DNA from: Candidatus Omnitrophota bacterium
GTDB lineage: Bacteria > Omnitrophota > Gorgyraeia > Gorgyraeales > Gorgyraeaceae
Length of the DNA: 64,000 nt
NCBI GenBank assembly: GCA_043821705.1
Contig: JBDRCN010000001.1
Span: forward strand, 74,133-138,132
Direction of reading: 5' to 3'
Numbering within the stretch: position 1 is the first letter of the stretch; each line of letters begins with the position of its first letter. This document shows positions 38,566-46,394 of this stretch, piece after piece. The notes under the pieces were generated by a model. That model was given only the letters and a program-made list of their open reading frames with translations. It did no database searches and was not told the origin of the DNA. A program made the translations under genes and the position numbers.

Positions 38566-38655
38566 AGGAGAGGTGCGTGAGTGGTTTAAACGGCCCGCTT
38601 GGAAAGCGTGTGTACTCGCAAGGGTACCCAGGGTTCGAATCCCTGCCTCTCCGCC
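38566..38655 (+). tRNA. tRNA-Ser (anticodon GGA most likely), type II with long variable arm
   Basis: Acceptor GGAGAGG/CCTCTCC, T-arm CAGGGTTCGAATCCCTG, variable-arm stem GTAC/GTAC, discriminator G, encoded CCA. The anticodon loop TTGGAAA sits on a 4/5-bp stem. Confidence 0.8.
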
Positions 38656-38740
38656 ATCCTTCGCCTTTCACGAAGGGTAAAATCGAACGTCTGGCTACGG
38701 ATGGCAGGCCAGTATTGGATCCAGCATATAAGGAGCAGAA

Positions 38741-39850
38741 ATGTTTAATCTTAAACGACACAGAAAGAGTTCCAGTGTATCTATGAAAATAGCAGTTATC
38801 GCACCATCATGGATACCAATACCTCCTCCACGTTATGGTGGCATCGAGATCGTTGTTTATAATCTCGTAGAAGGCTTGACAGCATTAGGACATGAGGTCA
38901 TTCTTTTTGCTCCTAGAGATTCAAATGTCTCATGCAGGTTTTTCCCTTATTTAGAACAACGCGAGTTTTCTTTAGGACTCGACTCTTCCCTCAGAGAAAA
39001 GGTCTTTGTCGGAGAATTGGCAAGTAAATACGCGTACTCAATGGCAGCGTATGAAAAAGTAGACATAATACATAACCACGTATTGACCACACCCCCAGTG
39101 GATATTGACATACCTGTTGTTCATACGCTCCATGGCCCAGCAAACGAAGCTACAATAAAAAAATGCGTTGAATTCTCAAAATCCTCCTATCATCATTTTG
39201 TCGCAATATCAGATAAGCAAAGAAAAAATTACATGACATTGAACAGTCACATTAATTTTATAGATACAGTCCATAATTCAATCGATGTGGGAGCTATTGA
39301 TTGGAACTCTGACAAAGAGGATTTTTTCCTTTTTGTAGGCAGGGTAAATTGGGAAAAAGGGCTTGAGATGGCCATACGCGTAGCGAGTAGAGCTAATATA
39401 AACTTAGTAATGGCTGTTAAAATGAGCGAGGATTTTGAAAAGGACTTTTTTAGACAGGAGATAAAACCGTTAATAGATAAATATCCTAAAGGCCTTCTCC
39501 TTAAACTTCATGAAGATCTGCCCAGGGATATGATACTGGACCTTTATAGGAGAGCCAAGTGCACACTTTTTACGAGTCAGTGGGAAGAGCCTTTTGGGCT
39601 CGTCATGATAGAGTCTATGGCATGTGGGACACCTGTCATTGCCTTGAGGCGTGGAGCAGTGCCAGAGGTGATAGCTGATGGGAAAACAGGTTTTGTGGTG
39701 GATACTGAAGATGAGATGGTCGAAGCGACAAAGAATATAGATAAGATAAGGCCCCAGGATTGCCGTAAGCACATAGAAGAAAATTATTCTAGAGCAAAGA
39801 TGGCTGAAAGATATATTGCTGTGTATAGAAAGATGCTTTCGGAGAGATAG
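38741..39850 (+). CDS. GT4-family (group 1) glycosyltransferase
   Basis: The GT-B fold N-domain with GG (YGGIEIVVYNL) is present. The C-domain carries the EX7E region EEPFGLVMIESMACGTPVIA. RBS AAGGAG lies 5 nt before the 38741 ATG. Confidence 0.85.
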   Translation: MFNLKRHRKSSSVSMKIAVIAPSWIPIPPPRYGGIEIVVYNLVEGLTALGHEVILFAPRDSNVSCRFFPYLEQREFSLGLDSSLREKVFVGELASKYAYSMAAYEKVDIIHNHVLTTPPVDIDIPVVHTLHGPANEATIKKCVEFSKSSYHHFVAISDKQRKNYMTLNSHINFIDTVHNSIDVGAIDWNSDKEDFFLFVGRVNWEKGLEMAIRVASRANINLVMAVKMSEDFEKDFFRQEIKPLIDKYPKGLLLKLHEDLPRDMILDLYRRAKCTLFTSQWEEPFGLVMIESMACGTPVIALRRGAVPEVIADGKTGFVVDTEDEMVEATKNIDKIRPQDCRKHIEENYSRAKMAERYIAVYRKMLSER

Positions 39851-39881
39851 GAAAGTGCCCAATGATTAATCAGGAGAGCAT

Positions 39882-41543
39882 ATGCTTAAAAAATTAAACC
39901 CATTAAAGACCAGATCTTGGGGATCATTAAAGAAGCATTTTGAGAAGATAAATTTTTTAAATATGAAAGACCTTTTCTGTGAAGACCCTGGGAGATTCAA
40001 TAAATTTTCTATCAAGTTTGATGAGATATTATTAGATTACTCAAAAAATATTATTACAGAAGATACTTTAAAACTGCTGATAGGATTGGCAGAAGAAGTG
40101 GACCTGAAAGATGCCATAGAAAAGATGTTTTCTGGTGACAGGATCAATGAAACTGAAAATAGGAGTGTACTTCACATTGCTTTAAGGAACAGATCGAACA
40201 CTCCTATATATGTACAGTGTCAAGACGTGATGCCTGAGGTCAATAGTGTTTTATCGCAGATGAAGGAATTTTCAGAAAATATCATAAGTGGAGCATGGAA
40301 AGGTTATGCAGGAGAAAAGATAAAAAATATTGTAAATATCGGTATAGGCGGCAGTGACCTTGGGCCAGTGATGGTCACAGAAGCACTAAAACCGTATAAA
40401 AAACAAGGACTAGACTCATATTTTGTATCAAATGTAGATGCTACTCACATTACTGAGACATTGAATGGATTAAATCCTGAAGACACTCTTTTTATAATAG
40501 CATCAAAGACATTTACTACCCAAGAGACCATGGCCAATGCTAATACTGCAAGGGAGTGGTTCTTAAGATCCGCAAAAGATAAAGGACATATTAAGAAACA
40601 TTTCGTTGCTGTATCTACAAATCAGGAAAAGGTAGAAGAATTCGGCATTGATCCAAAGAATATGTTCAGATTCTGGGATTGGGTAGGAGGCAGGTTTTCC
40701 TTGTGGTCTGCCATAGGGCTTTCCATAGCATGTAGCATTGGTTTTGATAATTTTTCAGAGCTTTTGGAAGGCGCCCATAAGATGGACAAACATTTTAGAG
40801 AGATCCCTTTCGAAAACAATATGCCAGTCATATTAGCACTTCTCGGTATTTGGTATAATAATTTTTTTGGAGCAGAGGCCAATGCAGTGCTCCCATATGA
40901 CCAATATATGCATCGATTTCCTGCATACTTGCAGCAAGGGGACATGGAAAGTAATGGTAAATACATAGATAGGACTGGCAAGGAAGTAGGGTATCAAACT
41001 GGGCCAATAATCTGGGGAGAACCAGGTACGAATGGACAGCATGCATTTTTTCAGCTTATACATCAAGGTACAAAATTTATACCCTGTGATTTTTTAGCAC
41101 CAATTGAAAGCCATAATAGAATAGGGGAACATCATAAGATCCTTCTTTCGAACATGTTCGCTCAAACCGAAGCTTTAATGAAAGGCAAGAGTAGGGATGT
41201 GGTCATCGGAGAATTGCGATCACAAGGAATGAGTGAAGACCTTGTTGAAACTATAGCATCTTTCAAGGTTTTTAAGGGCAATAGACCAAGTAATACTATC
41301 TTATTTAAAAGATTGACCCCTAGGACATTAGGGATGTTGATAGCAATGTATGAACACAAGATATTCGTCCAAGGAGTGATATGGAATATATTTAGCTTTG
41401 ATCAATGGGGAGTTGAATTAGGTAAACAACTTGCCAAGAATATCTTGAAAGAAATAGACAAGAAGGAATTTATCGATAACCATGACCCATCGACTAATGG
41501 ACTGATCAATTATTTTATCGAGGAGAATAAAAAGAATCTATAA
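39882..41543 (+). CDS. pgi: glucose-6-phosphate isomerase
   Basis: PGI signatures [10 protein letters not shown] and the catalytic region [18 protein letters not shown]. Confidence 0.95.
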
Positions 41544-42236
41544 ATGAAACTATCTATAATAATACCTGTCTACAATGAAGCTAACACTTTAGATGATGTG
41601 ATAGCTAAAATAAAAAATGTTAAACTGGAAGATAATATAATAAAAGAGATTATAATTGTCAATGACGGCTCAACAGATGAGACCTACGATGTTCTAAGTG
41701 GATACGATAAAGACCCTCTGATAAGGACATACCATAAGAAGAAAAACTCAGGAAAAAGCGAAGCAGTAAGGATAGGGATAGAACATTCAGAAGGAGATAT
41801 CTTGTTGATCCAGGATGCTGATCTCGAGTATGATCCTATAAATTACTCTAAACTTATAGAACCTATCATAAAAAATAAGACAAAGGTTGTTTATGGCTCT
41901 CGCTTTAAAGGCTCTATCGAGAACATGAGGCTTGTAAATAGGATCTCAAATATTATATCAAATGTGACGCTAAGGCTACTATACAGAACCCATATAACTG
42001 ATGTTAACACATGTTATAAAGCCTTTAGAAGAGAAGTATTTAAAGATATCTCTATTGATTCAAAAAGATTTATGATGGAGACAGAGATCACGGGTAAACT
42101 TCTTAAAGCAGGTTATGATATACAAGAAGTCCCTATTAGCTATAGAGCGCGCTCAAAAAAAGAGGGTAAAAAGATCACATGGTTCGGGGCTCTACAGATG
42201 TACGGGGGTATAATAAAGTATAGATTTTTTGGTTGA
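41544..42236 (+). CDS. GT2-family polyprenyl-phosphate glycosyltransferase (Dpm1/GtrB-like), soluble form
   Basis: IIIPVYNE ... NDGSTDET ... QDADLEYDP motifs. 230 aa with no TM segment. Start codon abuts the pgi stop. Confidence 0.8.
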   Translation: MKLSIIIPVYNEANTLDDVIAKIKNVKLEDNIIKEIIIVNDGSTDETYDVLSGYDKDPLIRTYHKKKNSGKSEAVRIGIEHSEGDILLIQDADLEYDPINYSKLIEPIIKNKTKVVYGSRFKGSIENMRLVNRISNIISNVTLRLLYRTHITDVNTCYKAFRREVFKDISIDSKRFMMETEITGKLLKAGYDIQEVPISYRARSKKEGKKITWFGALQMYGGIIKYRFFG

Positions 42237-46096: not shown

Positions 46097-46118
46097 TTTT
46101 GTTCTTTATCAGTAATAC

Positions 46119-46147
46119 TTGAAAAGTACAATAATTAAGTATATAAT
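46119..46147 (+). promoter_or_regulatory. sigma-70-like promoter for tRNA-Ser (TTGAAA-N17-TATAAT)
   Basis: Consensus-like boxes. The predicted start is ~15 nt upstream of the tRNA 5' end. Confidence 0.55.
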
Positions 46148-46169
46148 AACTAGACTTATAGCGATTATC

Positions 46170-46259
46170 GGAGGAGTGGCAGAGCGGTTGAATGCGGCGG
46201 TCTTGAAAACCGTTATGGGCTTACGCTCATCGTGGGTTCGAATCCTACCTCCTCCGCCA
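46170..46259 (+). tRNA. tRNA-Ser (anticodon TGA), type II
   Basis: Acceptor GGAGGAG/CTCCTCC, anticodon stem GCGGT/ACCGT with loop CTTGAAA, T-loop TTCGAAT, discriminator G, encoded CCA. Confidence 0.85.
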
Positions 46260-46394
46260 TCCTACGTCTTTCACGAATGGTAAATAGAACGTCTGACTAC
46301 TGATGGCAGGCCATAATAGGATTCGAAGCGAACCTATCCTTTCGAACATACTTCTAATTGTCTAATCCGAGATAGTTTGGTATAATTTAATGAT

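Follow-up and report, generated by a model that had tools for sequence, protein, structure and literature searches.

A conserved glycosyltransferase–radical SAM fusion in a candidate glycosylation cassette located between two tRNA-Ser genes of an Omnitrophota bacterium

The analysed DNA, a 64,000-nucleotide stretch of contig JBDRCN010000001.1 of a Candidatus Omnitrophota bacterium (hereafter the window), carries a cassette of five genes located between tRNA-Ser(GGA) and tRNA-Ser(TGA). One of these genes encodes a fusion of a family 2 glycosyltransferase (GT2), transmembrane (TM) helices and a radical S-adenosylmethionine (SAM) domain, followed by a SPASM-like Cys-rich region. According to the reading that we favour, to which we give an even chance, the cassette encodes an envelope glycosylation module of the polyprenyl-phosphate-sugar/GT-C (glycosyltransferase fold C) type, equipped with a membrane-tethered radical SAM domain for sugar tailoring and placed in a variable spot of the serS–tRNA-Ser array, and the repeated trailers following both tRNA genes are hairpin elements and not att sites.

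The GT2–radical SAM fusion protein

An earlier note on this DNA had described the product of the gene at 42229–44370 (plus strand) as a 713-aa GT2–TM–radical SAM/SPASM fusion. Indeed, all of its domains were matched by Pfam hidden Markov models: Glycos_transf_2 (PF00535; E = 8e-31; 107.6 bits, cut-off 23.3), Radical_SAM (PF04055; 7.7e-16; 59.1 bits, cut-off 29.5) and, marginally, SPASM (6e-5; 23.7 bits, cut-off 21.5); a match to Fer4_12 was also found. The GT2 domain occupies approximately residues 18–245 (42280–42963). It is followed by an interface and TM helices (residues 222–354; to 43290), a radical SAM core (residues 361–545; 43309–43863) with the motif CX3CX2C formed by C370, C374 and C377, and an auxiliary Cys region extending from C614 to C676 (44068–44256). 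The annotated TTG start (42229) adds 13 residues that are modelled with a predicted local distance difference test (pLDDT) score of <50 and are absent from most orthologues. Since the starts of the orthologues align at ATG 42268 (MSEKKISV..., M14), this codon is the likely true start, giving a protein of 700 aa.

Approximately 30 full-length relatives (41–58% identical) were identified in independent NCBI, JGI, ENA and Logan assemblies of Omnitrophota and Margulisiibacteriota (one metagenome-assembled genome, MAG, of the latter), and the same architecture is found in three remoter proteins (24–28% identical). A protein 100% identical to the fusion, from a Candidatus Omnitrophota MAG, is annotated simply as “glycosyltransferase”. 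The domain-architecture search thus recovered the same arrangement in proteins from independent assemblies, 24 of which were aligned and used to read the conservation of motifs. Because the architecture recurs in this way, the fusion is a genuine single open reading frame (ORF) and not an assembly artefact.

Residues D54 and D100-x-D102 (DxD) of the GT2 domain are invariant in all 24 aligned proteins, and the ED/DD-T motif (D193) is present in 23. The same full conservation was observed for the CX3CX2C motif and the GGE motif (G413-G414-E415) of the radical SAM core, as well as for five C-terminal Cys residues arranged in the pattern CX17C...CXCX3C. Since the catalytic motifs are invariant or nearly so, both halves of the fusion look catalytically competent, as far as can be judged from sequence. 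The canonical seven-Cys SPASM motif (PF13186/TIGR04085; CX9-15GX4C...CX2CX5CX3C...C), which binds two auxiliary clusters, was not found in the fusion, in which five Cys are invariant. Most orthologues contain an additional “YCC” pair approximately 20 residues before C614, so that their C-terminal domain contains 7–8 Cys; the protein of the window is devoid of both of these Cys (residues ~588–614; 43990–44070) and keeps the five invariant ones alone. The CX17C spacing resembles that of the twitch domain of BtrN. The C-terminal region is therefore best described as a putative SPASM/twitch-type domain with at least one auxiliary cluster, a single twitch-like cluster being the safer reading.

In the AlphaFold2 (AF2) model of the fusion (pLDDT 86.4), the nearest structures to the GT2 part are membrane-integrated synthase-like GT2s (hyaluronan synthase, PcManGT and BcsA), not GtrB or dolichyl-phosphate mannose synthase (DPMS). 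The best structural match of the radical SAM part is BlsE, a sugar decarboxylase (22.3), followed by SkfB, SuiB, viperin, MoaA and anSME. Helices were modelled at residues 222–247, 251–276 and 308–354, and two segments (282–300 and 309–327) are strongly hydrophobic; three to four helices come after the GT domain. Compared with PcManGT (6yv7) and the hyaluronan and cellulose synthases, the fusion has fewer membrane helices, contains a C-terminal radical SAM domain that is missing from those enzymes, and is devoid of the QxxRW motif ([QR]xxRW; present in 0 of the 24 family members). With SPASM/twitch enzymes (anSME, SkfB, BtrN, BlsE) it shares the CX3CX2C core, GGE and a C-terminal Cys-rich auxiliary domain, but it differs from them in having only five invariant Cys, a membrane tether and a glycosyltransferase partner.

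No paper on GT2–radical SAM fusions was found in the literature library that was searched. To our knowledge, few radical SAM enzymes acting on lipid-bound sugars have been described (HpnJ, calditol synthase), and none of them is fused to its glycosyltransferase. The conserved fusion points to a pair of enzymes with a likely substrate relationship, and it offers an entry to the envelope-sugar chemistry of uncultured anaerobic phyla.

Comparison of the fusion loci, which represent six distinct genomic contexts, revealed that a small GT2 gene lies directly upstream of the fusion in L001–L003 and L010–L011 (the orthologues in L001 and L010 being 56–62% identical to the small GT2 of the window), and that a more distant one is present upstream in L004–L005. 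All of the fusion loci examined hold large polytopic or PMT_2 (GT-C-like) proteins, and several are polysaccharide clusters encoding Wzt, Wzy_C, many glycosyltransferases and B12-radical SAM proteins. What recurs is therefore the combination of the fusion with a DPMS-like GT2 and some type of GT-C enzyme; the particular trio of small GT2, fusion and 584-aa GT-C protein (described below) is peculiar to the window among the sampled loci.

Other radical SAM genes were observed in these clusters. L004 (5373–7823; the same as L005 2908–5358) contains an independent fusion of 816 aa with the opposite domain order (Radical_SAM, SPASM and GT4), which shares a polysaccharide cluster with an orthologue of the GT2–radical SAM fusion and adjoins a lone 316-aa radical SAM protein, 28% identical to the radical SAM half of the window fusion. 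In L008 (1–15015), five further radical SAM genes (three B12-binding, one SPASM and one plain) surround a fusion orthologue, and the glycan cluster also has genes for PMT_2 proteins and a carbamoyltransferase. It appears that tailoring by radical SAM enzymes is a common trait of glycan loci in Omnitrophota.

Gene partners and candidate function of the cassette

The five cassette genes are all on the plus strand and contiguous or overlapping, and no further plus-strand ORF of at least 80 aa was found in the cassette. They encode a GT4 glycosyltransferase (38741–39850; 369 aa; Pfam Glycos_transf_1, 4.5e-26, and Glyco_transf_4, 5.6e-16), glucose-6-phosphate isomerase (PGI; 39882–41543; 553 aa; Pfam PGI over the full length, E = 1.5e-244), a small GT2 (41544–42236; 230 aa; Pfam GT2, 1.1e-35), the fusion, and a polytopic protein of 584 aa (44342–46096). 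The earlier assignments of GT4, pgi and a soluble Dpm1/GtrB-like GT2 agree with the Pfam results and with the DPMS match of the small GT2. A scan for promoters and terminators returned nothing above chance.

The best match of the small GT2 in the PDB is Pyrococcus DPMS (5mlz; 2.7e-21; residues 1–209), followed by the GtrB-type protein sll0501 and ArnC; no TM segment was predicted. Its sequence makes it a candidate catalytic subunit of a polyprenyl-phosphate hexose synthase. A link to arsenosugars was also considered and rejected, since the small GT2 scored 67 bits against the arsenosugar glycosyltransferase family (cut-off 182) and the arsC/ArsP genes lie beyond the second tRNA gene. An ArsC-type arsenate reductase and an ArsP-type permease are encoded there, at 46395–47737, and TIGR04283, the family of arsenosugar-associated glycosyltransferases, is matched weakly and below threshold by both the small GT2 and the fusion, probably by coincidence.

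The 584-aa protein, previously guessed to be a GT-C enzyme with an acidic first loop, does have a GT-C fold, with best matches to enzymes using polyprenyl-monophosphate-linked sugars (ALG12, ALG9, ArnT and Pmt4). The sequence RDGADFGRY follows its first TM helix, and Asp31 (codon 44432–44434), located in the first extracytoplasmic loop within the motif G-x-D-[FYL]-x-x-Y, is invariant in the family, as are G29-x-D31, Y35, W38, HPWHG..YHP and GTxTFGxR. Given the DPMS-like GT2 in the operon and the fold matches to users of dolichyl-phosphate mannose (Dol-P-Man) or undecaprenyl-phosphate-linked aminoarabinose (Und-P-Ara4N), the protein is a candidate GT-C enzyme using a polyprenyl-phosphate-linked donor. 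No Pfam hit was obtained for it, and it defines a sizeable GT-C family for which there is no Pfam model: an exhaustive HMMER search of 50%-identity representatives yielded 2102 matches at E < 1e-3 and 220 at E < 1e-30, the 7–10 matches of a word-indexed homology search being an underestimate. Genes of its relatives adjoin those of small GT2s, PMT_2 proteins, YfhO, a DegT aminotransferase and a methyltransferase. Two relatives, P0064 and P0066 (L096 8001–10391 and L097 1545–4328), have an extra N-terminal extension of approximately 200 residues before the first family-conserved TM helix; Pfam called it PA14 (sugar-binding) in P0066 only, which fits a glycan acceptor. Being uncharacterised variants of enzymes of known kinds, the fusion family and the 584-aa family are not categorically new.

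By far the closest solved relative of the GT4 protein is glucosylsucrose synthase (7fg9/8x3q; E = 1.5e-54; residues 14–367), a soluble enzyme that glucosylates sucrose (PMC9909042). The next are tetrahydrobiopterin glucosyltransferases. Judging from these similarities, GT4 is probably soluble and acts on a small molecule. Because the GT4 and PGI genes are adjacent and both of ordinary composition, this kinship suggests that they form a cytoplasmic sugar-metabolism pair that is separate from the three membrane-linked genes.

Three-component extracytoplasmic glycosylation relies on a synthase of the lipid-linked donor, together with a flippase and a GT-C enzyme, and sometimes on auxiliary enzymes that tailor the donor (PMC11127046). 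Like the Gtr, Arn and GT136 systems, the cassette joins a DPMS/GtrB/ArnC-like GT2 and a GT-C-fold enzyme in one operon, and tailoring of the donor before GT-C transfer would match the role of the auxiliary epimerases (PMC11127046). The differences are that the cassette has no flippase gene, that its small GT2 is devoid of TM helices, that the tailoring enzyme would be a radical SAM domain fused to a second, synthase-like GT2, and that the GT-C enzyme belongs to an unnamed family without a Pfam model. Since the flippase is missing, the cassette is not a full member of the three-component class. The earlier idea of one GtrB plus GT-C set may hold for the DPMS-like small GT2 and the GT-C protein; it does not extend to the GT2 of the fusion, which is not GtrB-like, or to GT4 and PGI, which probably stand apart. 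Another precedent is provided by HpnI/HpnK/HpnJ and by the archaeal calditol synthase (Cds), in which a radical SAM enzyme reshapes a sugar already attached to a membrane lipid (PMC13459092). There the activities reside in separate proteins, whereas here they would be joined in one fusion, and no match to the HpnJ or Cds families was seen among the best 25 of 70 matches of the NCBIfam scan.

By analogy with these systems, radical chemistry may plausibly be coupled to glycosyl transfer. The spacer between the tRNA genes probably comprises two units, GT4 with PGI for cytoplasmic sugar metabolism, and the small GT2, the fusion and the GT-C protein for membrane glycosylation. At the cytoplasmic face of the membrane, a nucleotide sugar would donate a hexose to polyprenyl phosphate or to a lipid-linked glycan, the catalyst being the small DPMS-like GT2, the synthase-like GT2 domain of the fusion, or both. 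The radical SAM domain, held at the membrane by the TM helices of the fusion, would tailor this sugar by means of a 5′-deoxyadenosyl radical and probably one auxiliary Fe-S cluster. The outcome might be epimerisation, oxidation, decarboxylation, deoxygenation or ring contraction, and the step could act on the nucleoside diphosphate sugar before transfer or on the lipid-linked product after it. A flippase encoded elsewhere would flip the product, and the GT-C enzyme would move the sugar to a periplasmic acceptor. The window contains lpxB and an msbA-like gene; the organism therefore makes lipid A, and lipopolysaccharide/lipid A is a candidate for the acceptor. These genes are located at 27303–31652, where lpxB and a gene for a GFO/IDH/MocA-type oxidoreductase are on the minus strand and the MsbA-like ABC exporter gene is on the plus strand.

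Several observations weigh against this proposal. The five cassette genes include none for a flippase (GtrA, MATE or ArnE/F), as judged from Pfam and the ORF list, and the small GT2, besides having no TM helix, falls below every NCBIfam cut-off (AglJ, DolP-hexose transferase and PpgS being the families matched). Searched with a profile of the 584-aa family, five other fusion loci contained no member beside the fusion. The TM parity of the fusion is also uncertain, with two strongly hydrophobic segments as against three long AF2 helices after the interface helix. Furthermore, its GT2 part is closer to polymer synthases than to polyprenyl-phosphate glycosyltransferases, and the sequence relatives of its radical SAM part include peptide maturases (SkfB) and a cross-linker of lipid tails (Tes, 7tol).

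The last two points lead to different functions. The GT2 and TM parts could form a processive exporter resembling hyaluronan or cellulose synthase, with the radical SAM domain editing the nascent chain and the GT-C enzyme adding branches in the periplasm. Because QxxRW is lacking and only two segments are strongly hydrophobic, a processive, channel-forming synthase is unlikely, and we assign this scheme a small probability. We hold to be equally improbable that the radical SAM domain modifies an isoprenoid or acyl chain (C–C coupling as in Tes/GDGT-MAS, or HpnH-like chemistry) while the GT2 supplies the head group, even though Tes ranks second among the solved proteins related in sequence to the radical SAM domain (E = 3.8e-6), a weak NCBIfam match to HpnH was obtained and the domain is tethered to the membrane.

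The peptide maturases raise the further question of whether a SPASM-type radical SAM domain cross-links or epimerises a peptide that the GT2 glycosylates in the manner of SunS, as in the biosynthesis of peptides that are made by the ribosome and modified after translation (RiPPs). SuiB, ChlB, CteB, PqqE and SkfB are all among the structural relatives of the radical SAM part, and SunS is among the sequence matches of the GT2 part (1e-9). However, the AF2 model has no RiPP recognition element (RRE)/PqqD domain, the beta-1 strand of the radical SAM core directly following the membrane-linked helix, and this disfavours a peptide substrate. There is also no precursor ORF, for which the packed operon leaves no room, and a protease and an exporter are absent; the partners of the fusion are a DPMS-like GT2 and GT-C enzymes, and the related loci are polysaccharide clusters (Wzt, Wzy_C and several glycosyltransferases). 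We regard this function as very improbable. The lowest probability of all, close to nil, is given to a viperin-like enzyme making a modified nucleotide for antiviral defence: the resemblance is one shared by radical SAM cores in general (PADLOC reported generic pVip only), the GT2 fusion, auxiliary Cys cluster and glycan-cluster context are unlike those of pVips, and PADLOC detected no other defence genes nearby.

Hairpin trailers of the tRNA-Ser genes

The positions of the two tRNA genes (both on the plus strand) were determined with ARAGORN and Rfam (RF00005). tRNA-Ser(TGA) is located at 46170–46259 (58.1 bits), as given earlier, and tRNA-Ser(GGA) at 38567–38656 (50.8 bits), a shift of 1 nt. 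They are followed by trailer copies 2 (46260–46322) and 1 (38657–38720), respectively, both delimited by repeat comparison and hairpin folding. The trailers, for which a likeness of ~80% had been claimed, are identical at 54 of 64 positions (84.4%), with one 1-nt indel; the repeat was detected by blastn-short with E = 8e-7 (database of ~1.2 Mb). It begins in the T-arm of the tRNA: the last 26 nt of the two tRNA-Ser copies are 89% identical, as compared to 57% for the first 64 nt and 49% for the outer flanks.

Folded alone, the trailers form no significant structure (z of -0.57 and +0.57). When the end of the tRNA is included, CCGCCA and the following TCC pair in both copies with a downstream GGATGGC(A)GG, after which comes CCA. 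In copy 1, CCGCCA lies inside the tRNA (38651–38656) and its partner at approximately 38699–38708. The inner pair reads GCC/GGC in copy 1 and GTC/GAC in copy 2, which amounts to one compensatory change. At gathering thresholds, Rfam detected only tRNAs, and all matches from a more lenient scan of trailer 1 stayed below threshold.

Homologous trailers were found after tRNA-Ser(TGA) in L042 and L051. L094, an unrelated GC-rich contig, contains two copies, one after tRNA-Ser(GGA) and the other after a second 3′ remnant of a tRNA; each of them immediately precedes one of two tandem GIY-YIG genes. Another case is L016 (14015–14140; the same as L095 2020–2145), where a displaced 3′ remnant of tRNA-Ser (ggattccctgcttctccgcca) is followed by a window-type trailer (fold z = -5.2), 2 kb downstream of an intact tRNA-Ser(GGA) and immediately upstream of the gene for a PilT-like protein, which points to insertion of a 592-aa gene at the 3′ end of the tRNA in the L016 lineage.

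The distribution of such hairpins was then examined for 135 distinct tRNA genes from 98 fetched loci and the window, the criterion being that at least 7 bp pair perfectly in a stem extending across the 3′ end of the tRNA. Stems of this type were detected in 19 of 91 tRNA-Ser genes and in 1 of 44 other tRNA genes, and essentially none were seen in shuffled trailers. The perfect inverted repeats over the 3′ end of tRNA-Ser (…CCGCCA) are 7–18 bp long (e.g. L044 12704–12760, L027 13519–13570, L020 4242–4290 and L025 12222–12275), and GGATGC or GAGATC frequently comes after their 3′ arm. The stems vary in sequence by lineage, always pairing with the terminal nucleotides of the tRNA itself.

In 12 loci, small ORFs (~80–86 aa) encoding GIY-YIG proteins (PF01541; E = 1e-13 to 6e-16) were identified, 11 of them within approximately 220 nt of tRNA-Ser: L023 2726–3268, L079 13312–13860, L092 2453–2776, L080 3410–3734, L088 11416–11725, L044 12324–12715, L093 3518–3831, L055 11001–11338, L062 13608–13967, L086 5100–5598 and L094 778–1534. 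These ORFs adjoin tRNA-Ser of any isoacceptor in Omnitrophota and in MAGs labelled Deltaproteobacteria or Thermodesulfobacteriota, and they are often flanked by partial tRNA duplications (the 5′ half lying upstream, or a remnant of the 3′ end separating tandem copies). The window contains no GIY-YIG ORF. No paper on bacterial GIY-YIG genes at tRNA-Ser genes was found in the literature, and the tRNA-Ser-specific association of hairpins and GIY-YIG genes appears to be undescribed.

We conclude that the window trailers are two ORF-less members of a tRNA-Ser hairpin family, which in other loci often accompanies small GIY-YIG nuclease genes, that they are not cassette junctions or att sites, and that they mark a recombination-prone locus. 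The hairpin may serve as a signal for RNA processing, or the nuclease may recognise it as a DNA structure. A bolder combined reading, in which the GT2–TM–radical SAM proteins are a new class of bifunctional membrane enzymes that load and radically remodel a lipid-carrier sugar (for instance, epimerisation, decarboxylation or ring contraction of a polyprenyl-phosphate sugar), and the trailers belong to an undescribed element, specifically colonising tRNA-Ser genes, that combines a GIY-YIG gene with a hairpin paired to the CCA end of the tRNA, is put forward only tentatively, as we think it rather doubtful. If true, it would provide anaerobic Omnitrophota and Margulisiibacteriota with an oxygen-independent route to unusual envelope sugars, to be installed by GT-C enzymes.

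Origin of the cassette and the serS–tRNA-Ser array

The earlier note had taken the tRNA flanks with their repeated trailers as a sign of horizontal acquisition. The trailers do not support such an acquisition, since the same hairpin class occurs at tRNA-Ser genes of many lineages, with or without inserted genes, and the result calls for caution in reading tRNA-adjacent repeats as integration scars. The interval had also been described as 7.5 kb of markedly AT-rich DNA, which is correct for two genes only: those for the fusion (GC 0.307; GC at third codon positions, GC3, 0.230) and the 584-aa protein (GC 0.296; GC3 0.231) have the lowest values of the 54 ORFs of the window (z of about -2.2 to -2.5), whereas GT4 (0.404), PGI (0.366) and the small GT2 (0.341) have a typical GC content.

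Synteny was compared in 80 related loci fetched via SerRS. The cassette proved not to be universal, since none of the 80 loci carries any of its five genes near serS. The region between the tRNA genes is variable in all of them, and the locus is thus a variable spot in a serS–tRNA-Ser array that is conserved across Omnitrophota. In L016, the closest relative (SerRS 80% identical), the GGA–TGA interval contains the unrelated 592-aa protein gene and that of the PilT-like ATPase, and synteny past the tRNA-Ser array is also lost.

Absence of the cassette from these relatives, the direct repeats of approximately 90 nt that flank the block, and the low GC3 of the fusion and GT-C genes would all be expected of a genomic island that entered as a 7.5-kb unit at tRNA-Ser by site-specific recombination, with the trailers as attL and attR. 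Integrative islands of tRNA genes likewise have direct repeats including the tRNA 3′ end, and a gene content that varies between relatives. However, when the five genes of the cassette and 25 genes flanking it were analysed with Pfam, no recombinase, integrase or other mobility gene was revealed, and an excisionase or transposase was not found either. The repeats share no more than 84% identity, their differences being scattered, and three of the five genes are typical in composition. Moreover, both tRNAs are complete and represent different isoacceptors, so that the right repeat follows an entire tRNA and not a tRNA fragment, and the same type of trailer occurs after tRNA-Ser in L042, L051 and L094, and with the displaced remnant in L016, the cassette being present in none of them. 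The window repeats, unlike those of integrative islands, belong to a hairpin/GIY-YIG-associated family found at many tRNA-Ser genes. An island of this kind is accordingly improbable, although horizontal arrival of the fusion and GT-C gene pair is plausible.

The genes upstream of the cassette, all on the plus strand, encode tRNA-Lys(TTT) (34600–34676), RtcB RNA ligase (35178–36629), SerRS (36643–37896) and a 221-aa multi-TM protein containing HExxH (HESMH), with a weak match to Peptidase_M50B (37893–38558). The order RtcB–SerRS–HExxH protein–tRNA-Ser array is kept in most of the 80 related loci, often with tRNA-Lys upstream, and the tRNA-Ser genes of the array (TGA, CGA, GGA and sometimes GCT) are spaced from 8 nt to approximately 7 kb apart, with differing genes between them.

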